From positions 1 through 52,944 of the IMG/VR virus record IMGVR_UViG_3300009678_000068: DNA of 52,944 nt. The stretch is one strand, 5' to 3'. Shown piece after piece: positions 1-52,944 of the stretch. Each line of letters opens with the position of its first letter. Position 1 is the first letter of the stretch. Below the pieces are notes generated by a model, which was not told the origin of the DNA, ran no database searches, and was given only the letters and a program-made list of their open reading frames with translations. Made by a program: the position numbers and the translations under genes. This DNA is from a virus (taxonomy: Duplodnaviria; Caudoviricetes).

Positions 1-591
1 AAGATACACCCAGCAGGCCAGGGTAAAGCTCGTATTCGCTCCGGCTGAGAGCGTCGCGTTATCGGCCACGCTAAGATACGTGCCTGCCGTGCCGTTCATG
101 GCGAGGGCGCTGCCAATTTTGCCCGCCGCATTCGTGACCTGCGCGGTGGTGCCGGTCGGCACCAGATGATTCGTCCCGATACTATCGAGGCGGTTGCCGG
201 TGGCTTCTTCGAGATCCCAATAGGCTAGCAGGCCACTCGTCAGGGTCGTGGTGGCGGAAACGGCGCGACTCCAGTAATTCGTGCCGCCGCCTGCTGCTGG
301 CGTACTCCACCCGCCGGTGCCATTGAGGTACTCGGTCGCCGTGCCGGAGAGCTTACGCAGCAGCCCATGCGCCGTCGTCGAGGCATTGAGGGTGGTCACG
401 TCCGCCAGGAGCCACTTGGCTTCGGTGATGCTAGCATCCTTGACGATACCCGTGATACTCGGCGTGGCGGCGTCATAGGTGAAATCCAGCGTGGCGCTGT
501 CGGTGAGGATGGTCCCTACCGCATCTTGCGCCTGCTCATCGGTATAACTCGATCCAGCACCGGCGACAGGGGGATACGGGTCGACGCTCAC
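1..591 (-). CDS. Tail fibre/virion protein with LamG (concanavalin A-like) domain, partial (runs off left edge)
   Basis: Not in ORF track. The GTG start overlaps the upstream TGA (GTGA). Translates MSVDPYPP...DEQAQDAVGTILTDSATLDFTYD...GLLAYWDLEEATGNRLDS...GKIGSAL...SFTLACWVY, a typical LamG N-terminus. Confidence 0.75.
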   Translation of the reverse strand, partial: MSVDPYPPVAGAGSSYTDEQAQDAVGTILTDSATLDFTYDAATPSITGIVKDASITEAKWLLADVTTLNASTTAHGLLRKLSGTATEYLNGTGGWSTPAAGGGTNYWSRAVSATTTLTSGLLAYWDLEEATGNRLDSIGTNHLVPTGTTAQVTNAAGKIGSALAMNGTAGTYLSVADNATLSAGANTSFTLACWVYL

Positions 592-2057
592 GGCGTACCT
601 CCTTCAAGGGCTTCGAGACGCAGAATCACGTCCTGAAGTGCCCCCACCACCCACGGAATCACTTTACTGTTGTCCACTTGCTGCGGGCGTACCGTACCAT
701 CGTCGTTCACGGCGTCCGGCTCACCCGTCACCGCGTCAGGAATCACCTGCTGCAGCTCGTGCGCCAGGAAACCGACGCCCAGCTCGTCGTTCGCGTTCCA
801 GCGAAACGCCACTGGCCGCAGCGCCCGCACACGTTCTAGCGCGCCGGCGAGCGTGGCGATGGCGTGCTTCAAGCGCTGATCTGAGCTGGTGTTGTACGTC
901 GTCGCTGTGGCAGTTGTGTGTATGGACCCCACAACCGTATTGGCAACATTCGCAAAGGTCACCGGGCCGAGCGGTCCCGTATCGTTCCCTGAGTGTTTGA
1001 ATTTGATGCCCCCAAACGTATCGCGAGCCACGTCAATGGAGAGCCGAAAGTTGGATTCTGGCGTGTTATATCCTGCGCCAAGCCCCACTGGCCCCGCAAA
1101 ATAATTCGGCGCGGTGCCATTGGCGTAGATGTTAAAGCGATTCGTCCCTGCGGCGATGTCACTACGCACACCGACAGCTTGCAGCAGTGTGGCTGACTGA
1201 GGTGCCACATAGAGCCCGTAAAAGGATGCCGTCGCCAACCCAGCCCCGGTTGTGGCTTCAACACGTACACCAGTGAGACCGACAGCGCCCGCAGGTGCCA
1301 CAGGCCATATCCGCGCACTGTGATACGAGTTCGCCGCATCACTCGCCACCACACTGCCCTGCACATCCAGCACGCCCGTTGGCGCATGCCCGCCAATGCT
1401 GATCGCGCCATCCGTAATCGCCACCGCACCCGCGTTCTGTGTGGCGAGCGTGCCCAGCCCCAGCGTCGTGCGCTGCGCCGCCGCGTCGGCCCCGGCCACC
1501 AGCGTGCGCCCCGCCGCCGTGAACGTCGCCAGCGCCGCGGTGCCGAGTCCGGTAAAGTACGGCAGCGTATCTGCGGCACTGACCAGGACAGCGAGCGCCG
1601 CGAGTTCAGGATCTTGCGCCACAAACTCCAGGGCCAGTTCTGCCGCGTTGACTTTGACAAACCGTGTCGCCATACCGGTGTAGGCATCAGGGGTATCGAC
1701 AAGTCCTAAGAAGGTCCCCACGCCGCCATTGGCGAGCGCCTGTTCTTCGCCCCAGACCATGACCGTCAGATTCGCATCCCCCGCATACGCCCTGAGCACG
1801 TCCGTATTGGCGAGGCATACGCCCATCGTAAAGGGCACCATCGTATTGGCCGCAATCGAGACGTCGTAGGCAAAATACTGGCCCATGGCATCTGCAGCGC
1901 CTGCTGGCGCATGGCTCAAGCGAAAGGTCGTGGCGGTCGCTCCACGGTTACACACGACAATCGTGGAGACCGCCACCTCCGCGGTCGCGGTGTAGATGGT
2001 CGTGAGCGTCGTGGCGCCAAGCGCCACGCCACAGAGTTGTTTGAGGCCTGCTGGCAT
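588..2057 (-). CDS. Tail fibre protein with C-terminal peptidase S74 intramolecular chaperone
   Basis: TSSDQRLK...RALRPVAFRWN...GFLAHELQQVIPDAV motif and terminal coiled coil. Confidence 0.85.
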   Translation of the reverse strand: MPAGLKQLCGVALGATTLTTIYTATAEVAVSTIVVCNRGATATTFRLSHAPAGAADAMGQYFAYDVSIAANTMVPFTMGVCLANTDVLRAYAGDANLTVMVWGEEQALANGGVGTFLGLVDTPDAYTGMATRFVKVNAAELALEFVAQDPELAALAVLVSAADTLPYFTGLGTAALATFTAAGRTLVAGADAAAQRTTLGLGTLATQNAGAVAITDGAISIGGHAPTGVLDVQGSVVASDAANSYHSARIWPVAPAGAVGLTGVRVEATTGAGLATASFYGLYVAPQSATLLQAVGVRSDIAAGTNRFNIYANGTAPNYFAGPVGLGAGYNTPESNFRLSIDVARDTFGGIKFKHSGNDTGPLGPVTFANVANTVVGSIHTTATATTYNTSSDQRLKHAIATLAGALERVRALRPVAFRWNANDELGVGFLAHELQQVIPDAVTGEPDAVNDDGTVRPQQVDNSKVIPWVVGALQDVILRLEALEGGTP

Positions 2058-2059
2058 CG

Positions 2060-3451
2060 TTAGCTACCCATGTGCATGAAAACGCGTTTGCGCGAACGAT
2101 CCGGGACAGTGATGGTCGTGCCACCACCGCCACTCCCGGTGGCAGAGAGGACACCGCCGGCCAGGGCCAGGCCAGCCCCCACGGTAATCTCGTGCGGTGG
2201 ACCCGCGACGCCATTCGAGCGTCCGAGCACGCGCTGGTTGGCCATGTCCTGCATCTTCGCAAACGTGACAGACCCATTGTCGATCTGTGCTGTCCCGACC
2301 GTATCGAGCAGCGCCAGGTCTTGCAGCCCGAGCTGCGTCCGCATCTCGCCCACGTTTGCCGCGCCCACAAACGTACGTGCCGCAGCGGTAAACGCCGTCG
2401 TCGCCACGGTGTCTGGGCCCGTGAAGTACGGCAGCGTATTGGCACTGGTGGTCAACGCCGCGAGCGCGGCCAGGAGGGCATCGTACTGCTGCACGTTTAC
2501 CCCTGGTACGAGTCCTAGCGCGCTCTGGGCGCCTGGGACCGTCGTGGCCCCGGTGCCGCCCTGCGTGATCGGCACCGGGACACTCAGCGCGGGACCATAC
2601 TCCAGCGCTGTCATGGCGGCATTCACGCGCAACATCGCGCCTGCCGCCCCCGCATAGGTATCCGGCGTATCGAGGAGCTGCAACCAGGTGGTCGCGCCGC
2701 CACCGCCCCCGCCGACGATAAATTCCAAGCCGTTCGCGGTCGCGTTGACCGCCACGACTTTGCCTTCCTGACCGGTGTACGTATTGGGCGTATCAAGCAA
2801 GGAAAGGAAGTTGTCGATTCCCCCGGTGCCAGGCACAAACTCAATCCCCGATTCATCGCCCTTGATGCGTAAGATCCTGTTCGCCTGCCCGACATACGTA
2901 TCCGGCGTATCGAACAACGCCAGAACCGTCTGCGGCAGCACCGCCCACTGCAGCGCCGTCTCGTCCGGCGTCACCTGTAAGACCTTGAGCGCCTGGCCCG
3001 CAAACGAATCAGGGACGTCGTCCAGTCCCAGAATCGACGTGACCAGATCGACATACTCCAGCGCGCTCATACTCGTACCAACGCGCACGCCTTTCCCGGC
3101 CTGTCCGGTATACGCCCCTGGACCGTCCACCAGCGTCACAAACGAGGCCGCTGGGGCAGGGCGCAGCGCGATCCCGGCAATCGCCAGCCCCTGCGCCTCG
3201 ATCTGCGCTTTCACGACTGCGAGCTGCTCCACCGTGGCGGCGTTCGACGGCGTCGTACTGGTGCCCACGTTGTTGATGCCGTTCTGTCCCAGATCGACGC
3301 CATTATAAAATTTGACCGGCCCGCTGAAACCATATCTATTTGATAAGTGTTGCGTTATTCTATCGAGGGTCCGGTTGATATCGTGAGACAAGCTCATGGC
3401 ATCGCTGGTAGGCAAGATCCTCAAGGGGTCAATACTGTTCGCGACAGGCAT
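2060..3451 (-). CDS. Tail fibre-like protein with internal DTPxTYxGQ repeats
   Basis: Five to six repeats of F/WxxLxDTPxxYxGQxxKxxxV...LEF, and an LPYFTG module shared with 588..2057. Confidence 0.75.
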   Translation of the reverse strand: MPVANSIDPLRILPTSDAMSLSHDINRTLDRITQHLSNRYGFSGPVKFYNGVDLGQNGINNVGTSTTPSNAATVEQLAVVKAQIEAQGLAIAGIALRPAPAASFVTLVDGPGAYTGQAGKGVRVGTSMSALEYVDLVTSILGLDDVPDSFAGQALKVLQVTPDETALQWAVLPQTVLALFDTPDTYVGQANRILRIKGDESGIEFVPGTGGIDNFLSLLDTPNTYTGQEGKVVAVNATANGLEFIVGGGGGGATTWLQLLDTPDTYAGAAGAMLRVNAAMTALEYGPALSVPVPITQGGTGATTVPGAQSALGLVPGVNVQQYDALLAALAALTTSANTLPYFTGPDTVATTAFTAAARTFVGAANVGEMRTQLGLQDLALLDTVGTAQIDNGSVTFAKMQDMANQRVLGRSNGVAGPPHEITVGAGLALAGGVLSATGSGGGGTTITVPDRSRKRVFMHMGS

Positions 3452-10598: not shown

Positions 10599-11861
10599 CT
10601 AGCCCTCTGGGCGTGAGAGCGCGACTTCCTGCGCGCGCCAACGACTGCGTTTCCAAGACCCCTCTTTCTCATACGGCCTGATCCAGGACGGGTCTTCGTC
10701 GAAGTAGGCCAGCGCCATGCCAATGCGCTTCCACTCGTCTTCGGTCAAGGCATGGCCCTTGGTGACGCGCATCTGGAAGTTCGACTCCTTGAGCCCCTCC
10801 AGGCCGATCGCCCGCGCCATGACCCGGCTGGCAATATGGCGCACTTCCAGTTGCCGGCGCAGCCAGGCGGCTTTCTGCGCCGTGGTTTTGGTCTGTGCAC
10901 CCGGCACCACCGCCATCGACGGCGTCAGATGCCCGTTAAAGATCGTCGGCACCTCCTCGCCCTCTTCCAGGGGAACCTCCTCGCCCTCTTCGTCTGTTTC
11001 GGGAGACACTGGCGTCTCGGGAGACGCTGGCGTCTCGGGAGACGCTGGCGTCTCGGGAGACGCTGGCGTCTCCCCCCCCAGCGCGAACACGTCGTCGTCT
11101 TCAATCAGCTCCGGCTCACGCTGGGAGGACCGTTCTTCGAGGAGCCTGGCCATCGCAACCTCCAGGCCAGCGCGCGTCAGTCCCAGCTCGCGCATGATTC
11201 CCTTGTCCGACCAGTCCAGGGCTTTGAGGCGCAAGAACTGGACATAGACGCTGTCGTCAATGTGCATAGCAGCGCGTTCCTGCGCATCGGTGAAGGCGAT
11301 GTTGTCCCAATTCATGCGCAGCTTGCGCAGGTCAACCATGGGAGGTGACGTGGGCCTGATGGCTTCGATGCTGGTAAAGAAGGGGCTATCGTTGGTCGGG
11401 TCGAGAATCTGCCGGACGTTCATCCAGGCGATGGCTTTTGAGGCTTTGTAGTGCTGCCAAGCCAGCTCCATGTCGACGTTGTACTCACTCGGGTCGTTCG
11501 CCATGTTGGCCGACAGCATGCCCTGCGTAATATCCTTGCGCAGCTCGTCCTCCAGCATGGCATACTTATTGCGCTGAATCGGCGTCAGGTCGCCGGGAGG
11601 CCGGGAGGCGTCCAGCGTCGCCTGGTTCTTCTCCAGGAGCGTCCGCACGTGATCCTGGTCAGGCGCACTGCCGCCGCGCAGGCGCTCGGGCATCTGATCC
11701 CCAAAGAGGCGCTCGCCGTCAAACTGGCTGCGCCCCTCTAAGGCCCAAGACAACTCTTGCTGCTCGCGCTCCAGGCGGCGTAACTCGTCGGGCTTGCCAT
11801 ACCGAAACCGGGACAACTGCTGAATACTGAGGATCTCGTTTCCTGCAGGATGCTCCATCAA
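10599..11861 (-). CDS. Hypothetical protein with acidic linker and possible C-terminal HTH
   Basis: 420-aa ORF containing TPASPE repeats. Confidence 0.65.
   Translation of the reverse strand: MMEHPAGNEILSIQQLSRFRYGKPDELRRLEREQQELSWALEGRSQFDGERLFGDQMPERLRGGSAPDQDHVRTLLEKNQATLDASRPPGDLTPIQRNKYAMLEDELRKDITQGMLSANMANDPSEYNVDMELAWQHYKASKAIAWMNVRQILDPTNDSPFFTSIEAIRPTSPPMVDLRKLRMNWDNIAFTDAQERAAMHIDDSVYVQFLRLKALDWSDKGIMRELGLTRAGLEVAMARLLEERSSQREPELIEDDDVFALGGETPASPETPASPETPASPETPVSPETDEEGEEVPLEEGEEVPTIFNGHLTPSMAVVPGAQTKTTAQKAAWLRRQLEVRHIASRVMARAIGLEGLKESNFQMRVTKGHALTEDEWKRIGMALAYFDEDPSWIRPYEKEGSWKRSRWRAQEVALSRPEG
11001..11072. repeat. 4 x 18-bp tandem repeat GGGAGAC(G/A)CTGGCGTCTC
   Basis: Directly visible; encodes ETPASP; each unit is a mini-hairpin. 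Confidence 0.95.
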
Positions 11862-11886: not shown

Positions 11887-12114
11887 TCAGGCGCTCTGGC
11901 TCACCTTCTTAAACGTCATGCCAGCCTTGGCGCTGCCACCGCCCGGACTGACTCTGGTGGGTTCCCGCAGCTCCCCAGGCGCCTTGCCAGGCTTACTGCC
12001 GGAGCCATGGCCGGAGACGCTGTAGCGCTTGCCAAGCGTCGTGGTGCCGCAGTCTTTACAGACGGTCGAGCCTTTCACTTTGGTGCCGCTGTCGTCACTT
12101 AAACTTGCGTTCAT
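11887..12114 (-). CDS. Small basic hypothetical protein
   Basis: AGGAG RBS; CxxC motif. Confidence 0.5.
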   Translation of the reverse strand: MNASLSDDSGTKVKGSTVCKDCGTTTLGKRYSVSGHGSGSKPGKAPGELREPTRVSPGGGSAKAGMTFKKVSQSA

Positions 12115-12125
12115 GCCACTACTCC

Positions 12126-12155
12126 TAGCATAGGTTACAAAACACTAGGTACAAT
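12126..12155 (+). promoter_or_regulatory. Promoter, shared motif copy 1 (upstream of HNH gene)
   Basis: TAGCAT-aggttacaaaacactagg-TACAAT; near-identical to the motif before terL. Confidence 0.65.
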
Positions 12156-12273
12156 TTAGGTATACTTACGCTCGGCACAGATAGCGCTGGCCTCATGAAC
12201 TAGCGCGACAAGCCTGTCCGCACAGGTTTCTGTGCTACACACTATGCGGAAGCAACTCATGCGGAGGTTGCAC

Positions 12274-13003
12274 ATGCCACGCAAACCACTCACGCCTGAA
12301 CAACGTACCAAAGCCGCTGCCGCAACCGCAGCATGGCAAAAAGCCAATCCTGAAAGACATCGAGCCAATCAAAAACGCTGGGAAGGACTCCATCGCGAAC
12401 AAGAACGTGAACGTTCACGCATGCGCGCAGCAGCAGATCCAGAAAAAGCCCGCACCGCCTCACAATTTCCTCCGGGAAGCCCAACCTCTCGGAGGTTGGG
12501 AGGGATAGGAGGTTGGCCGCAGGCCAATTCCTTGTTGGCGTGTCGCCAATTCCCTCTGCGCAGAGCGCACATTCCCTGGCATAGGTCACAATATACGAGA
12601 TACACTTTCCCTGAGTGCTGTAGACACTCTCCTTGGAGAGCAACGGTTTCAGGGCACTCGGTTCCTTGACAAGTTGATCTAGGTGGTTGCGGGAACTCAA
12701 TCGTTTTGCCCGCGTAAAAGATCAAAACGTTTCCTGAACGTTGGAACGCGCTGGGTGTAATGCCCAGCACTAGGGGTGCTAAAGATGCTCTCCGTAAGGA
12801 GAGACGGTGTAAGCCATCCTGATTGATACGCCCCGATCTTGGTCGGGAGTGTAAAGCCCAAGGATTTATCCTTGGGTGTGCTTACTGCACTAGAAAACAA
12901 TGGACCCAATACCATCTGGAACGTTCTTGCTGCCTGTCGTATCTGCAACGCCAAAAAAGGCACTAGGCATGCCCCTGGCCCTGTACAGCCCTTGCTCTTA
13001 TGA
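12274..13003 (+). pseudogene. Free-standing HNH endonuclease disrupted by an IS200/IS605-like element
   Basis: GGAGG-ATG N-terminal part MPRKPLT...DPEKARTAS; C-terminal part ALENNGPNTIWNVLAACRICNAKKG...QPLLL*; the central CxxC/DH segment is missing. Confidence 0.75.
12464..12885 (+). mobile_element. Non-autonomous IS200/IS605-like element with omegaRNA-like RNA
   Basis: Follows TCAC; subterminal hairpins CCCAACCTC-GAGGTTGGG and CCCAAGGAT-ATCCTTGGG; ends GTGCTTAC; GNRA loops; homologous to 52237..52660. Confidence 0.7.
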
Positions 13004-14413
13004 GGGCAACATGCCTATGATCCAGCGCCATTCTGGTATAACTTGAACTGACCAGGCACCATACCCTGACCACTTCAACTGCTTCGTCTCAAAGTCTCTG
13101 CAACTGTTCATGGCGGGGCTCTTTATCCTCGCCTCCCCACTTTCGTGGGGTATCGGACTATCTCATCATCCTTAACAGGATGCCGGGCGCTCGTGGGCGG
13201 GTTATTGGGTGGCTCCTCACCGCCTAGTCTCTAGAGGTTCGCTGTACTTCCATGCCTTTCCAGCGCTTCCTACGGGATTACCCTCTGCGGCTTCCCCGTT
13301 TCACCCGGTGCACTCATCAAGATTACTCTTGCGAGGGACCAGTAGACTCGATCATTTCGTACTCTGGCTTACAGTGCTGTTATCGGCGGGGTTCTTTATC
13401 CCCGCCTTCTGCATGTCACCATGCAGCTCCGACTATCTCATCACCTCTATAGGTGTCGGGCGCTCGTGGGTGGCTTATTGCTGGGCTGCTCACCACCTAG
13501 TCTGTAGACCTTCGTGTGTACTCTCATGCCATTCCACACGCTTGGTACGGGATTGCCTCAGTGAGGGTTTCCCCGTTTCACCCGATTTATACTGGACTAG
13601 CTAGTTATTATTAATCCAGTCCCACCAGATACAGGACTCTTCGCGCAGGTTCTTGTTGACCAGGTACGACGCGTTGACGTTGGTCAAGCGGTTCCAGATA
13701 ATCAACTCCGCCGTGTCCTGCTCGGGGTTCACGTTGCCGAACGCGGTATCGAGGCCGCGAGGCGTGCGGAGAATCTCCAGAGCGCGCGGCTCATTTTCGA
13801 TAGACGTCCACAGCTCATCGCCCACGATATCGGTCAGGTCCCCGCGGTCGTTCCTGAACCGGCGCATGAGAATCCGCGCCGCGCGGTACGTGGTCGGGCC
13901 AAACGCTCCTACCAGGTAATTACTGAAGCCGCTCGCCACCGACACCCCAGGCGTGCGCGTCTGGTGCGCCGCAGAGATCAACGGCACAGGCTCCGTGGAC
14001 TCCCAGAACGTCGTGTTGATCGACGTGGCGCTGTTAAAGATCGTCGCCGCGTGCGTCTGCCGCGTGATCAACCCGGAACGGACGATTTTGCGAAACCTAT
14101 CGGCACGTTTTAATATGCCTGTTAGGTCCGATTCGTACATCCTTCTAGTTATATTCATACCCTGACTAAATTCTCTATGAGTGGCCACACTGGCATATTG
14201 CTCATAGAACCTATCGTAGTCAATAGAGCCAGTAAAGGCGCCCCACTGCTGCGCCTCACCAACGCTCGAAATCCTTTCCGTGGCGCGGTCAGAGTCGCGC
14301 ACGGTGCACAGACGCGGGATGTAATCGCGCTGATCGGATAGTTCTTTGTCAATTACCTCACGATATCTCTCATCAATAAGGGTAGCAAATGCGTTGAAAT
14401 CCATTACCGGCAT
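12998..14413 (-). CDS. Major capsid protein, spliced (exons 14413-13614, 13371-13351, 13100-12998; 307 aa)
   Basis: Mu gpT-like/HK97-fold pattern. Splicing gives ...WWDWI-KPEYEMI-RDFETKQLKWSGYGAWS...EWRWIIG, the expected C-terminus. Joined length is 924 nt, in frame. Confidence 0.85.
13101..13350 (-). ncRNA. Group I intron 2 in capsid gene (250 nt, no ORF)
   Basis: 5' exon ends in U (GAU pairs with GUC); P10 CAGAGA/UCU(A)CUG; P7 GACUA/UAGUC; terminal G. Confidence 0.85.
13372..13613 (-). ncRNA. Group I intron 1 in capsid gene (242 nt, no ORF)
   Basis: P1: exon ACUGGAU pairs with IGS GUCCAGU including the U-G wobble; P7 GACUA/UAGUC; terminal G. Confidence 0.88.
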
Positions 14414-24700: not shown

Positions 24701-24705
24701 AACTA

Positions 24706-24735
24706 ATTGTACCTAGAGTTTTGTACCCTAAGCAA
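24706..24735 (-). promoter_or_regulatory. terL promoter (shared motif); probably a leaderless transcript
   Basis: TTGCTT-18 nt-TACAAT, 5 nt before the ATG, with no SD. Confidence 0.7.
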
Positions 24736-32925: not shown

Positions 32926-32995
32926 CACGTGTCCCAGGGACAGCTGACAGCTGTCCCTGGGCGCTATCCCTGGTACGTCTGCCTGCTCCCTGGTC

Positions 32996-33245
32996 GCTAT
33001 CCCTGGTACGATCGGGAGAACGTCTCCCTGGTACGATCGGAGGCACGTCTCCCTGGTATCCTCCCTGGCACGTCTCCCTGGTATCCTCCCTGGCACGTCT
33101 CCCTGGTACGATCGGGAGAACGTCTCCCTGGTACGATCGGAGGCACGTCTCCCTGGTATCCTCCCTGGCACGTCTCCCTGGTACGATCGGGAGAACGTCT
33201 CCCTGGTACGATCGGGAGAACGTCTCCCTGGTATCCTCCCTGCGC
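32996..33245. repeat. 25-bp-period array: core CGTCTCCCTGGTA plus three alternative 12-nt modules
   Basis: Core at 33021, 33046, 33071, 33096, 33121, 33146, 33171, 33196 and 33221. Confidence 0.95.
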
Positions 33246-33525
33246 TATGCTGGCGCCAGATCTTACGTCCCCTTTTTGTCCCCCACTTTCCCCGTCCCCG
33301 TCCCCCCTGCTCTCCCTGTCTCCCTGGCATGGCCCGGTGATCGCTGGCAACCTTCCCGAGCACTCTCCCTATGCGTACACATGAAGGACGAAGCGAGCGC
33401 AGAGCCAGGAAAAGGAAGGGCGAAGCAAAAAGGAAGGGCGAAGCACAAATAAAGTAGCGCGGGAGTTTTGTAGTGTAGTACAATATATTAGAGTACAGTA
33501 AATGTCTTCATGAGAGAGAGGCACG

Positions 33526-49548: not shown

Positions 49549-49554
49549 ACGTCC

Positions 49555-50653
49555 TGCGATCGCGAGGCACGGATACGCAAGGCAGGCATGGCAACGCACA
49601 GGCACGGCGCGTCTGATCAAGGCAAGCGCGGGCTTCGCGTGGCAGGCGAGCCCTGGAGTGGGCGGTGTCGACGGCAAGCGTAGGAGATGCGAGACGGGAC
49701 AAGCCCGGACAAGGACTGCCACGGCAGGCGTGGCGTGACTGGTGCGGCGCGCATGGGCACCGCGAGGAGTGACAGGGCAGGCGTGGTTGGTCGAGGCGGG
49801 ACAAGGCCTGACAAGGACTGCCACGGCAGGCGTGGCGGGTCGAGTCTCGGAGGCGCCAGCATTGGACGGTCCCGGCATCGTTGGGAGAGGCAGGCACGGC
49901 CAGCGAAGGGCGTCAAGGCATGCGCGGCGTGGCCTAGCGGCAGGCATGGTTCGTCGTTGCGAGTCGAGACCAAGGCGGAGAGGAGCGAGGCGCGGCAGGC
50001 GCGGACGGCCTTCGCGAGACGAGGGACGGGGCGTCATGGCCCTGCGGGCCTTCGCAAGGCGAGGACGCCAAGGCAGGCGTGGCATACGTGCCATGCAGAG
50101 TCGCGGCGTCGCAAGGCGCGGGAGCCAAGGCAAGGCGTCGACGGCAGGCACGCAGGGGCTCGCCATCGCACGCATAGGTGAGGCACGGCGTGGACGGCAG
50201 CCTGGGCACGGACGCTGGCGCAAGGAAGGCATCGCGAGCACGAGAGCGGCGGTTGCGCGAGGCACGGACAGGCGCGACGCGGGAAGGCAGGGTGGCTCGG
50301 ATGGCAGGGTGGCGCACGATGAGTCTCGGACAGCTATGGCCTGGCCCGGACAGGATCGCGGGTCACGGCAGGCCAGACACGCAGCGCGGAGGAGGCGCAC
50401 CGCCCGTCTTCCCAAGGTGGCACACGACACGGCAGGCATCGCGAGGGTTCGCGAGGCGGGACAAGGCCGTGATAGTTGAGGCACGGCAGGCTGCGCGCGC
50501 GAAGGGATCGCTCGCCACGGCGTGCACAGCCCTGGCAGACGAAGTCCCCGGCTGGGTAACGCCGGGCTCGGGACGCAGTCGGTCGGCACGGCAGGCGGGG
50601 AGTGTCACGGGCGGCACGGCCTGGCGAGACAGGGCGCTACGAGGCAAGGCAAG
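49555..50653 (+). repeat. Pentamer-periodic (GGY-like+NN) array, block 1
   Basis: 14 exact GGCAGGC delimiters, mostly 49-80 nt apart; no credible ORF. Confidence 0.8.
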
Positions 50654-50687
50654 TCATTATATATAAAAGAGTTAGGGCAAGATTTGT

Positions 50688-50782: not shown

Positions 50783-51601
50783 ATGCCTGACGTGAATCGT
50801 ACCACAGATCTGTCTCTCGTCCTTGATATTCATTCCTGTGTCATTGATGGAGAATGGACACAAACGGTAGATGCCCGCACGCTCTATGCCCATCTTGGAC
50901 ATACAACACGCTTCAATGACTGGATAACTCGTAGCATTAAAGAGTATGGATTTATCGAGGGGACGGATTACTTTTACTCTCCACAGAGTAAAACTACGCA
51001 AGGACGTCCACGAGATACCTATATGTTGAGCATCGATATAGCGAAACAGCTTGCTATGGTCGAGCGCAGCGCTATTGGACGCCAAGTCCGCGAGTATTTT
51101 CTTGCGTGCGAAAAAGCCATGGGCACCGGGGCTCTCGCGCAACGACTGGAAAGCCTCGAAGCCCGTCTCGCTGCCTTTGAGATCCCACAACCAACTGCCC
51201 ATCGCTTCACCATGCCTGAAGGACGCCCTCCACGGCACATGCACGTAGTGAACCCACCAACGATTGAGCGCTATGGACTGCCAGGGGTCAAGCGCACGAT
51301 GCCTGATGTCCAGATCGCCAAACGTGTTGAGGTATCCTGGCCCATGGCACAGGTCTGGCACTTTTTGCGGACCAACGATTACTGGTTCTGCAATAGTGAG
51401 CTAGCTAACTACACCGGCGTCAAAGAGCGTACAACACGTTCGTACACCTACTACTTCTATGGCGTCGGCTTATTGGCCTGTCAGGAGATATTCCCACAAC
51501 ATCTCTACAGGATGAAAAACGATGTAGACACACAGTTTCCAGAGATCGTTAGCCATCTTGATGCATGCTACGACATCTTGAAGAAGCGTGCGGAGTTTTA
51601 A
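50783..51601 (+). CDS. AntA/AntB antirepressor family protein with C-terminal HTH
   Basis: AAGGAG RBS; VDARTLY..L...F.DWI...I.EYGF.EG.DY, AKQLAMVE, G.QVREYF..CEK. Confidence 0.88.
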   Translation: MPDVNRTTDLSLVLDIHSCVIDGEWTQTVDARTLYAHLGHTTRFNDWITRSIKEYGFIEGTDYFYSPQSKTTQGRPRDTYMLSIDIAKQLAMVERSAIGRQVREYFLACEKAMGTGALAQRLESLEARLAAFEIPQPTAHRFTMPEGRPPRHMHVVNPPTIERYGLPGVKRTMPDVQIAKRVEVSWPMAQVWHFLRTNDYWFCNSELANYTGVKERTTRSYTYYFYGVGLLACQEIFPQHLYRMKNDVDTQFPEIVSHLDACYDILKKRAEF

Positions 51602-51644
51602 GGCATAACACGAGGGGGGGAGTAGTAATCCCTCCTTCCAACAA

Positions 51645-52236
51645 GCATGGCAGGCGAGCCATCGCTTGGCTCCGCCCGACACGGCACGCAGAGGCCTGGC
51701 TGGCTCCGCTTCGCGCGTCTGGGCAAGGGCGGGAGGGCATGGATCGCCAGGGCAGGCAGCGCGCGGTTCGGCGCGCCTTCGTGCGGTGTGCCATAACTAG
51801 GATTGGATGGCAGGCGAGCCCTTGCGTGGCTGGGTATTGGTCCGGCACGGCGGCACACGACGGCGCAAGGCACGGCGATCCACGGTATCGCAGGCGAGGC
51901 TAGGCGAGCGGTCGCGAGTCGAGCTGGCACATGGTTAGGATTGGACGGCAGGCGTGGGCAGTCCCGGAGTCGATGTCTCGTCCTCGCACGACTCGTCTAG
52001 ACATCGCATGGTTCGGCAGGCGAGACGTGTCCTGGTGCGGACTCCTACGCCAAGGCATGTCAAGGATTCGCAAGGCTCGGTAGCGGCTCAGCGCACGGGA
52101 AGGCTTCCCAAGGCCAGCTATCGTTGGGCGAGGCAGGCTCGGTACATGGCGCGGCCAGGTGTGGTCGGCACGGCGTGGACGGCAGGCACGCATAGGCGTT
52201 GCAGCGACAGCCTCGTCATCGCAAGGAGAGCGGAGC
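51645..52236 (+). repeat. Pentamer-periodic array, block 2
   Basis: GGCAGGC at 51649, 51751, 51809, 51947, 52015, 52132 and 52181. Confidence 0.75.
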
Positions 52237-52660
52237 TTGACATACTCCCAAGGTCAGAGACCTTGGGATTCTGGGATGTGTACCCAAAAGGATACGCGAT
52301 GGCTGCCCCGTATGAGGTCTTACTTCCATCTCTCCACAATGGTTCGATGCCCCGACCATGGATGCATCACCCGGAGGCGATACATCGCGTGTACCACTGT
52401 TCTCTCTTACAGCGTTATACGTTTTACGCGGAAGACTGCCTTCCGCAACCGCCTACGCATAGTTTCAAAGAGCCGCACGTGACAACGGATGAGTTGTTAG
52501 GCTGCTTTCCGTTGGCGTCACGTCGTAATAGTGTAAGTATACTTAGGAATATGTAACCTATGCAACAGATTCTTGTAGGCCAGCACCGCCAGTGCCTAAA
52601 GGCTAAGGATAGTGCCTTATATCCCAAGCTTGAAAGCTTGGGGTCTACGGCACCGAGGTT
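52237..52660 (-). mobile_element. Non-autonomous IS200/IS605-like element with omegaRNA-like RNA
   Basis: Right end GAATCCCAAGGTCTCTGACCTTGGGAGTATGTCAA; left-end hairpin CCCAAGCTT-AAGCTTGGG; no ORF. Confidence 0.78.
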
Positions 52661-52823
52661 CTAGACACGGCAGGCGAGGACCGTTAACGCCCGGCCCGGA
52701 TGGCGAGGACGGCGAGGCCAGGATAGGCAGGCGTGCATAGACGAGGAAGCGCCAGCCAGGGATAGGGAGACGCGGGAGGCAAGGCAGGCAGCGCCCGACA
52801 TGGTTTACCAAGGCGTGCACGCG
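52661..52823 (+). repeat. Pentamer-periodic array, block 3
   Basis: GGCAGGC at 52669, 52726 and 52783. Confidence 0.7.
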
Positions 52824-52944
52824 TTGACATACTCCCAAGGTCAGAGACCTTGGGATTCTGGGATGTGTCCCCCGAAGGAGACGCGCCGGTTGCCACCGAA
52901 GTGGGCTTACGGTCCGACTCTCCGCACCGGTTCAATGCCCTGAC
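52824..52944 (-). mobile_element. Third IS200/IS605-like right end, partial
   Basis: About 45 bp identical to 52237 onward, then compensatory changes; runs off the window. Confidence 0.78.

Follow-up and report, generated by a model that had tools for sequence, protein, structure and literature searches.

Gene-less forms of IS200/IS605 transposons are a known kind of mobile element, and some of them carry a guide RNA. The palindrome-associated transposable elements (PATEs) of Geobacillus stearothermophilus described by Meers et al. (2023) have no open reading frame (ORF), bear hairpins at both ends, occur in multiple copies, and pair their transposon-adjacent and transposon-encompassed motifs (TAM and TEM) with internal DNA guides; an RNA exits through the right end, and the nuclease TnpB and the transposase TnpA are needed in trans (PMC10055086). 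The same work describes the covariation of TAM and TEM with the DNA guide for IS200/IS605 elements, names the 3' end of tnpB as the region encoding TnpB guide RNAs, and reports that PATEs often encode such omegaRNAs, which are necessarily used in trans (PMC10055086). We analysed a contig of 52,944 bp from a tailed virus (IMG/VR record IMGVR_UViG_3300009678_000068; estimated completeness 45%; the whole contig is called the window below). At 12464-12885, on the plus strand, it carries an element, el1, that is probably a protein-less, PATE-like IS200/IS605 element with a promoter-driven structured RNA. The new features are a boxA-like 5' domain and a candidate phage-type promoter. Compared with PATEs as described in the available text, the elements studied here have a long 5' extension (hairpin, boxA-like motif, two-stem module) without counterpart in tnpB-bearing relatives, and they include copies in phage genomes under a phage-type promoter motif.

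Two further systems invite comparison. The omegaRNA of TnpB elements (IS605-type, such as ISDra2) corresponds to the 3' end of the element, contains the right-end hairpin and takes its guide from the 3' flank. The RNA predicted for el1 has this architecture, and bacterial members of its family align with tnpB 3' ends of the same genomes, but the el1 RNA overlaps no tnpB ORF, would have its own promoter and lacks an Rfam match, and its scaffold homology is undetectable by sequence. The other system is the boxA leader, bound up with Nus factors, of rRNA operons and some CRISPR arrays (PMC13753749), which el1 resembles in having a GCUCUUUAACAA-like 12-nt motif directly after a small 5' hairpin in a transcript predicted to be untranslated; here the setting would be a transposon guide-RNA gene, and the likeness is one of sequence alone. 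Three copies lie in the window:

12464-12885, plus strand: el1, a complete TnpB-less IS200/IS605-type (PATE-like) element of 422 bp
about 52237-52660, minus strand: el2, a second family member of 424-426 bp, with a left border uncertain by 1-2 nt
52825-52944, minus strand: el3, the 3' portion of a third copy, cut by the window end and 82% identical to the 3' part of el2 (blastn of the record against itself)

A probable gene-less IS200/IS605-type element in a phage HNH gene

Each end of el1 bears a subterminal hairpin, the two lying on one strand, and inverted terminal repeats are absent. Its parts and flanks, all on the plus strand, include the two remnants of an HNH endonuclease gene, for which a related phage (L006) provides an intact counterpart:

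12128-12170: promoter-like motif upstream of the HNH gene, GCATAGGTTACA...CTAGGTACAAT...TATACT, conserved in phage L006
12274-12463: N-terminal HNH remnant, 63 codons, frame +1, placed by synteny with the intact L006 HNH gene (same upstream region and start context)
12460-12463: TCAC, the left-flank target/cleavage motif (TAM) of el1, which fits guide GAAG
12476-12500: left end, with DNA guide GAAG (12476-12479) and hairpin CCCAACCTC-TCG-GAGGTTGGG (12480-12500)
12577-12606: putative internal promoter, TGGCAT, 18 nt, TACACT, assigned from its position and a shared motif
12627-12640: small 5' hairpin CUCUCC-UU-GGAGAG (ACACUCUCCUUGGAGAG in el1), homologous to ACACUCCGCUUGCGGAG in relatives L101-L103 and L107
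12661-12673: boxA-like motif GUUCCUUGACAAG, matching the E. coli boxA consensus at 9 of 12 positions and the rrn leader motif of the bacterial genome G001 at 9 of 12
12674-12725: core module, with stem A UUGAUCU / AGAUCAA, loop AGGUGGUU, stem B GCGGG / CCCGC and loop GUAAA
12738-12852: 3' structured part of four hairpins, the presumed guide-RNA scaffold, recognised from its folding z-score and from compensatory changes against the viral relative L114
12853-12885: right end, with DNA guide AAAG (12853-12856), hairpin CCCAAGG-ATTTAT-CCTTGGG (12857-12876) and a tail to TTAC (12882-12885)
12886-12905: 3' flank from which, given this architecture, the guide TGCACTAGAAAACAATGGAC would come should TnpB use the RNA as its guide
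12887-13003: C-terminal HNH remnant, about 38 codons, frame +2, containing ...NTIWNVLAACRICNAKKG...

Family members share a common plan. A short left arm leads to a tetranucleotide immediately 5' of a hairpin (CCCAAGC-TTTCA-GCTTGGG in el2), a promoter follows about 60-120 nt further in, then a structured region of 220-300 nt without an ORF, and the right end consists of another tetranucleotide followed by a second hairpin and a tail some 9-11 nt long. Across the family these guide tetranucleotides covary with two four-base motifs, the one that closes the left flank and the one that closes the element. Five pairs were found (GAAT/TCAA, GAAG/TCAC, AAAG/TTAC, CAAG/TGAC and GAAA/TCAT), in which guide base 1 is complementary to cleavage base 2 and guide base 4 to cleavage base 4. 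Pairing of this sort is what defines IS200/IS605-type ends (PMC10055086). In el1 the left pair is GAAG with TCAC and the right pair AAAG with TTAC, and its close relative L114 shares the AAAG...TTAC arrangement; in el2 and el3 the pair at the right end is GAAT with TCAA. At the left of el2, AGAC with CTAG fits at three of the four positions, hence the uncertainty of that border. It had been noted earlier that el1 follows TCAC. This is the motif expected from its own left guide, and TCAC precedes all five related left ends that were read (el1, L103, L106, L107 and an el1-like copy in metagenome runs X1 and X3).

The cleavage code of IS608 TnpA in Helicobacter pylori is TTAC/AAAG on the left and TCAA/GAAT on the right. 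Bacterial members of the el1 family use exactly TTAC with AAAG and TCAA with GAAT, with a left arm of about 19 nt and a right tail of about 10 nt as in IS608, and el2 and el3 have GAAT...TCAA; el1 differs in its TCAC/GAAG left and TTAC/AAAG right ends and in having neither tnpA nor tnpB inside. A covariance model (R2) was built from the last 135 nt of eight bacterial copies, of which three are tnpB-linked. It is insensitive to right ends of other types, and its three best matches in the window are exactly the three predicted right ends: el2 at 52241-52277 and el3 at 52828-52864 (33.8 bits, E 1.8e-6 each), and el1 at 12854-12880 (15 bits, E 0.05, third best). On left hairpins R2 was weak (el1 12476-12504, E 1.6).

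At the right junction, ...GCTTAC is followed by TGCACTAG (12885/12886), and the flanks read TCAC before and TGCA after el1, without a target duplication. This border is backed by the resumption of HNH homology and by contig breaks in run X2, an independent sediment metagenome, whose contigs break exactly there (12884/12885) and are bridged by a piece of lower depth. The X2 breaks suggest variants that share one side of the junction only.

The gene that el1 interrupts was examined by comparison with phage L006, whose capsid protein is 93% identical and which has an intact HNH ORF of 194 aa at the same site, convergent with the capsid gene and without the element. In tblastn of the L006 protein against the window, residues 3-37 matched weakly in frame +1 at 12277-12360 (E 0.16) and residues 146-194 matched in frame +2 at 12854-13000 (E 5e-7); the part containing CxxC...DH had no match. 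The C-terminal remnant covers positions 23-47 of the 47 of Pfam HNH (E 0.0027, below the cutoff) and matched PHROG HNH families, and a protein search with the N-terminal remnant returned no match. Exact removal of el1 does not restore the reading frame, because 422 bp is 3n+2 and the remnants lie in frames +1 and +2. The comparison with L006 bears out the initial annotation, which had el1 standing in place of the HNH core, CxxC-DH absent and the frame still broken after excision. To judge by its sequence, the gene is a pseudogene that lacks the CxxC-DH core.

How the core was lost can be reconstructed only conditionally, and the earlier proposal of a deletion between two TCAC sites is plausible in a two-step form. 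el1 would have integrated as single-stranded DNA 3' of TCAC in the HNH gene, mobilised in trans by a Y1 transposase (TnpA) supplied by the host. An aberrant TnpA excision with an upstream TCAC as its left boundary would then have removed the core, and el1 would have re-inserted at the resulting TCAC joint. Alternative boundary choice by TnpA is documented (PMC10055086). The right border falls where L006 reads ...ATC ATT/CCA CTC... (the slash marking the border), and an ancestral ...ATC AC/T GCA CTA... would put TCAC exactly at the insertion point, in frame. el1 appears to keep everything in cis that a host-supplied Y1 TnpA would need, and would be mobilised in trans; matches to Y1 TnpA number 11 in genome G001 and 10 in genome G002, two bacterial genomes that harbour family members.

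The kinship of el1 and el2 had been proposed from collinear motifs. Each of these is present in el1, namely GTTCCTTGACAA (boxA-like, 12661-12672, plus strand), TAGGTGGTTGCGG...CCCGCGTAAAA (12680-12719, plus strand) and GGAGAGACGGTGTAAG (near 12800, plus strand), with el2 counterparts on the minus strand at 52.2-52.7 kb, and the two elements are indeed of nearly equal size (422 bp and 424-426 bp). Plain blastn within the record found no similarity between them at E <= 10, and their pairwise MAFFT alignment was uninformative. A covariance model (R1) of nine sequences, all from outside the window, was run on both strands of the window with filters off. It matched el2 at 52404-52483 (58.2 bits, E 5e-12) and el1 at 12651-12737 (42 bits, E 4.5e-8), and the next match had E = 2. 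The nine sequences had been found with a 22-base pattern drawn from el1 and el2, so the conserved loop letters of R1, being part of that pattern, are circular evidence; the stems, the boxA-like motif and the end architecture are the non-circular evidence of kinship. Together with covariation across 20 members (below), the R1 matches show el1 and el2 to be diverged members of one structured-element family on the strands originally assigned.

The 22-base pattern occurred at three sites in species-representative genomes, all of them metagenome-assembled genomes of Ardenticatenales, and on four metagenome contigs; every one of these (3/3 and 4/4) is a true member, a complete or contig-cut element of the same build. 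A first scan of viral contigs with this pattern returned no match, though scans of this kind may omit the window's own record. Of 17 loci from a looser viral scan, only L114 (viral record G166), a close el1 relative, passed the model; the other 16 failed it and were treated as chance. Pattern, BLAST and model searches together yielded about 25 relatives, in Ardenticatenales genomes, metagenomes and another phage contig, with copies at unrelated sites and three in the window. Matches to the R1 module number nine in G001 (10.4 Mb), five in G002 and four in G023, and no match was seen in the other 149 of the 151 genomes of the class that were searched. A distant-mode blastn search of a phage collection with 12100-13100 found no match. 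The contigs L097 and L096 carry phage-like genes, for a Mu F-like protein and a large SLT-domain protein. The left end and core also occur, in diverged form, on DNA contigs of runs X1, X3 and X4, in one copy with 223 rather than 277 letters between the ends; these contigs show a multi-copy, varying family, and excision is not among what they show. Many G001 copies (L007, L020, L026, L035, L101, L102, L104 and L107) have been invaded by small, G+C-rich palindromic repeats resembling repetitive extragenic palindromes, which are very abundant in that genome and often lie within the hairpin loops of the element.

The predicted RNA and its boxA-like leader

The promoter-like site between the ends of el1 would drive an untranslated, structured RNA of about 280 nt that runs out through the right end. 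Its proposed order is small hairpin, boxA-like motif, two-stem module, multi-hairpin scaffold, right-end hairpin and flanking DNA. In bacterial copies the promoter is near consensus (TTGACA-17-TATACT, TTGACA-17-TATCTT and similar), and its place is homologous to that of the tnpB promoter in tnpB-bearing copies. At the same place phage copies have TTGCAT or TGGCAT, 18 nt, and then TAYACT, with a spacer motif (AGGTTACA...CTAGG) that is common to el1, el2, the region upstream of the HNH gene (12128), position 24733 on the minus strand, L006, L095, L096 and L114. A scan for the sigma-70 consensus found no promoter in el1 or el2 and no match at the HNH upstream motif, 12128-12170. Because of this negative scan the promoter of the phage copies is a candidate, and the claim that the element has its own promoter stands for its position and for a motif shared with other phage genes but fails, in phage copies, as a match to the sigma-70 consensus. 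A motif of about 30 nt, GCATAGGTTACA-N6-CTAGGTACA, recurs at 12128-12156 (plus), 24705-24733 (minus), 12579 (plus) and 52563 (minus), and may be a phage-specific promoter or operator.

Both elements fold far more stably than shuffled controls (el1 z = -5.98, el2 z = -4.29). The reverse strand of el1 also folds strongly (z = -7.12), so the strand is not given by folding energy alone. The two-stem module has invariant loops (GGUUG and CGUAAAA) and a stem A of varying sequence: UUGAUCU/AGAUCAA in el1, UAUGCGU/ACGUAUA in el2, UAUCGGU/ACCGAUA in L007, UUCAGAU/AUCUGGA in L008 and UUGAUAU/AUAUCAA in L095. Over 20 members 92.8% of cells pair, compared with 67.9% in shuffles, in an alignment of related members that leans toward the structure because it was fitted to the model. 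Both sides have changed in 13 of the 14 pairs, and none of 500 shuffles reaches the observed values; sliding one partner by 1-3 columns leaves 34-50% pairing. Along the full RNA, 12 of the 68 predicted pairs show compensatory changes between el1 and L114, one such change falling in the small 5' hairpin, with which the RNA starts in many members and of which L114 has a variant form.

The boxA consensus is UGCUCUUUAACA in E. coli and AUGAUCUUUGAAA in B. subtilis, in B. subtilis rrn operons boxA is described as following a 5' hairpin, and the leader and the spacer are the two places where boxA is expected (PMC13753749). The el2 motif, GCUCUUUGAAAC, matches the E. coli consensus at 9 of 12 positions and the B. 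subtilis consensus at 10 of 11. The best likenesses are in both L094 copies (12/12 to GCUCUUUAACAA) and in L067 (11/12). At least 9 of 12 positions agree with the E. coli consensus in 7 of the 20 members, as compared with 0.43% of background windows, although the members are related and their counts non-independent. In G001, which belongs to the Ardenticatenaceae, all three rrn operons have similar motifs, GCACCUUGACAGUUGAAGAG some 80 nt ahead of the 16S gene and GAACCUUCCCAAUUGAAGACG in the spacer past the tRNA, and it is these forms of the host clade that several family members resemble most. A hairpin-plus-boxA leader is absent from L013 and L048, the two tnpB-bearing copies whose leaders were read. 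The two-stem module has no Rfam match, and R1 does not match rrn loci; it is accordingly the 12-nt motif that is rrn-like, not the module.

The boxA-like site of the initial annotation is conserved and resembles the E. coli and B. subtilis boxA as well as the Ardenticatenaceae leader and spacer motifs. A hairpin-plus-boxA leader would recruit antitermination of the NusB/S10 type, and antitermination would let an RNA that is unprotected by tnpB translation be transcribed to its end. We consider a working boxA in the element RNA possible, though we lean against it. We found no literature linking boxA or Nus factors with TnpB, and the available text of PMC10055086 does not mention a boxA-like leader for PATEs.

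Relation to tnpB and competing readings

Neither tnpA nor tnpB was found inside el1, and the ORFs over it had no Pfam or PHROG match beyond the HNH remnant. Whether the interior is a simple tnpB remnant was checked by tblastn of the stop-to-stop ORFs of at least 250 aa from 16 loci, TnpB ORFs included, against the elements. Nothing fell below E of about 0.1, and the interiors of el1 and el2 are without TnpB protein similarity. No family member found was seen to carry tnpB. TnpB (PF07282) matches number 12 in G001 and 19 in G002, and the tnpB-bearing elements of these genomes have the same left end, promoter place and right ends as the gene-less copies. The last 130 nt or so of gene-less copies also align with the 3' ends of tnpB-bearing ones (L049 with L071 and L074; L013 and L011 with L105 and L019; L048 with L067), and in bacterial members this region shows compensatory changes, for example CUGUG-GGGCGG-CACAG versus GACUG-GGGCUA-CAGUC. 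The proposal of an RNA-only family rather than decayed tnpB is upheld as far as the lack of TnpB similarity and of tnpB in the members goes. The family is not independent of tnpB, because homology to tnpB-bearing elements in the same genomes extends to its ends, to the position of its promoter and, among bacterial members, to roughly the last 130 nt. By these comparisons it appears to be a gene-less derivative (PATE) of a tnpB transposon lineage, with a 5' domain of its own.

The most probable use of the el1 RNA, though one to which we give about even odds, is in trans as an omegaRNA for a TnpB made elsewhere. The TnpB that takes up the RNA would be encoded by the host or by phage sequence that the record does not cover, and the guide from the 3' flank would direct cutting of element-free sites, so that the element is kept and copied by recombination. 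A search for a second target of the guide found no close match in the window or in L006 (the limit of five mismatches is loose; the el3 guide is one base off). We also considered the HEARO/IscB omegaRNA, likewise a structured RNA adjoining HNH sequence in a mobile-element context. This candidate was rejected: Rfam gave no match, the HNH gene is an ordinary interrupted phage gene and not IscB, and, since the promoter points toward the right end, the guide would sit at the 3' end, unlike the 5' guide of HEARO/IscB. On viral record G166, sub-threshold Rfam matches to HgcC (29 bits, E 0.0019) and sot0042 occur at 2100-2291 (minus; L129), some 350 bp upstream of the record's el1-like element and where an HNH-like ORF has its 3' end. 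The stretch ends ...GAGCATGTCAA and may be another right-end remnant of TnpB type next to an HNH gene.

Several observations weigh against reading el1 as a PATE-like element with a promoter-driven RNA. The window, a 45%-complete record, has no match to Y1_Tnp or to TnpB (PF07282). Scaffold homology to tnpB 3' ends is seen in bacterial members only; for el1 it amounts to the marginal right-end match at E 0.05 and for el2 and el3 to the right-end hairpin. The two-stem module, as modelled by R1, is in none of the tnpB loci fetched, lies at least 67 kb from any TnpB match in G001 and has no contig in common with TnpB in G002, which places it outside the known tnpB-linked scaffold. Rfam, including its TnpB- and IscB-associated RNA families, gave no match on el1 or el2 at E <= 10, nor on the bacterial members L103, L074, L013 and L049 at E <= 1. 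To these add the negative sigma-70 scan, the lean of the covariation alignment and the restriction of the boxA likeness to a 12-nt motif. None of the sequencing runs listed is recorded as RNA. Finally, the plus-strand structure could serve a single-stranded DNA transposition intermediate too.

The strongest alternative, which we nevertheless consider unlikely, is a mobile cassette of promoter and antiterminator, or an RNA that works without TnpB. Here the function would lie in the conserved hairpin, the boxA-like motif and the two-stem module, which might form a signal for processive antitermination, say, or a small RNA that binds protein, and the right-end part would be transposon machinery only, with read-through into the flank, in this case antisense to the last capsid exon. 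This would suit a 5' module that is the most conserved part of the family and absent from tnpB-bearing copies, a conserved boxA-like motif, the lack of any terminator-like site after el1 in a scan of the plus strand, and the phage's own promoter-type motif on phage copies. It does not suit the 3' 130 nt or so of bacterial members, whose homology to tnpB-linked guide-RNA regions, with compensatory changes, is unexpected if only DNA ends mattered; moreover, copies lie in unrelated contexts with no common downstream gene.

Less probable is that el1 is an inert, decaying remnant that resembles el2 by common descent only, with nothing selected in the phage. The window holds no TnpA or TnpB, the interrupted gene is already destroyed, and blastn shows no similarity between el1 and el2, all as such a remnant would have it. 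However, el1 retains both ends with intact guide/cleavage pairs, helices over the full length of the RNA are maintained by compensatory changes against L114, other metagenome runs contain related copies that share its ends, and the promoter region bears the phage's own motif.

There is also only a slim chance that the stems act solely in single-stranded DNA during TnpA transposition, without a functional RNA. IS200/IS605 elements do transpose as single-stranded DNA of the top strand and rely on hairpins in that DNA (PMC10055086), and strand bias in the covariation cannot separate RNA from DNA, because G-T pairs are tolerated in DNA. Against this, every bacterial copy retains a promoter immediately upstream and phage copies have another, of phage type, the boxA-like motif is an RNA signal, and TnpA dependence is described for the two end hairpins and guides, with no internal structure mentioned in the available text (PMC10055086). 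A self-splicing intron or intron-like insertion in the HNH gene, which the high degree of structure and two group I introns 250-750 bp away on the other strand might suggest, is refuted by the frame and core analysis, as removal leaves the frame broken and the catalytic core missing, while the ends are IS200/IS605-type and the only Rfam intron matches are those two minus-strand neighbours (none on el1 at E <= 10).

Returning to el1 as a gene-less relative of tnpB transposons, a more far-reaching scenario can be offered only tentatively, and we judge it rather improbable as a whole: that gene-less OMEGA elements (obligate mobile element-guided activity) of the el1 lineage are an adapted RNA-only form and more than deletion remnants, used by phages to program host TnpB. 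After loss of tnpB the lineage would have acquired an rRNA-operon-style leader (5' hairpin plus boxA) and the conserved two-stem 5' domain, which together would yield a guide RNA that stands alone, needs no translation and resists premature termination. Phages would carry such elements under their own promoter motif and so program host TnpB during infection. If this were true, the element would have a homing drive, and co-infecting phages without the insertion might face a weapon as well. A working boxA would show how a guide RNA that once lay within a translated mRNA stays full-length after gene loss, in parallel to the boxA reported upstream of some CRISPR arrays (PMC13753749). The family is in any case a clear example of a gene-less form with a conserved 5' domain that its tnpB-bearing relatives lack. 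It provides a compact natural set of covarying TAM/TEM and DNA-guide pairs, and its phage-borne copies could be used to probe phage exploitation of host TnpB.

Neighbouring genes and repeats

Other features of the window lie outside the elements:

588-3451: tail and tail-fibre genes
13601-14413, minus strand: Mu-gpT-like major head gene, interrupted by two group I introns

The two introns of the major head gene lie at 13134-13363 and 13409-13642 on the minus strand (Rfam, 51.2 and 72 bits) with a 45-nt exon between them, and the last exon, which is convergent with the HNH remnant, ends near 12998. The head gene of L006 has one intron above threshold and an extra insert of about 270 nt elsewhere in the gene. 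G+C-rich non-coding stretches at 49550-50660, 51620-52230 and 52680-52820 are dense in short repeats of the GGCAGGCG type, and el2, el3 and an AntA/Bro-like gene (50784-51601) are embedded in them. A tandem array at 32961-33260 consists of at least nine 25-nt units resembling CTCCCTGGTACGATCGGGAGAACGT. Beside the capsid region, an 18-nt tandem repeat (10996-11067) codes for PETPAS repeats within an ORF of 420 aa (10599-11861, minus strand).

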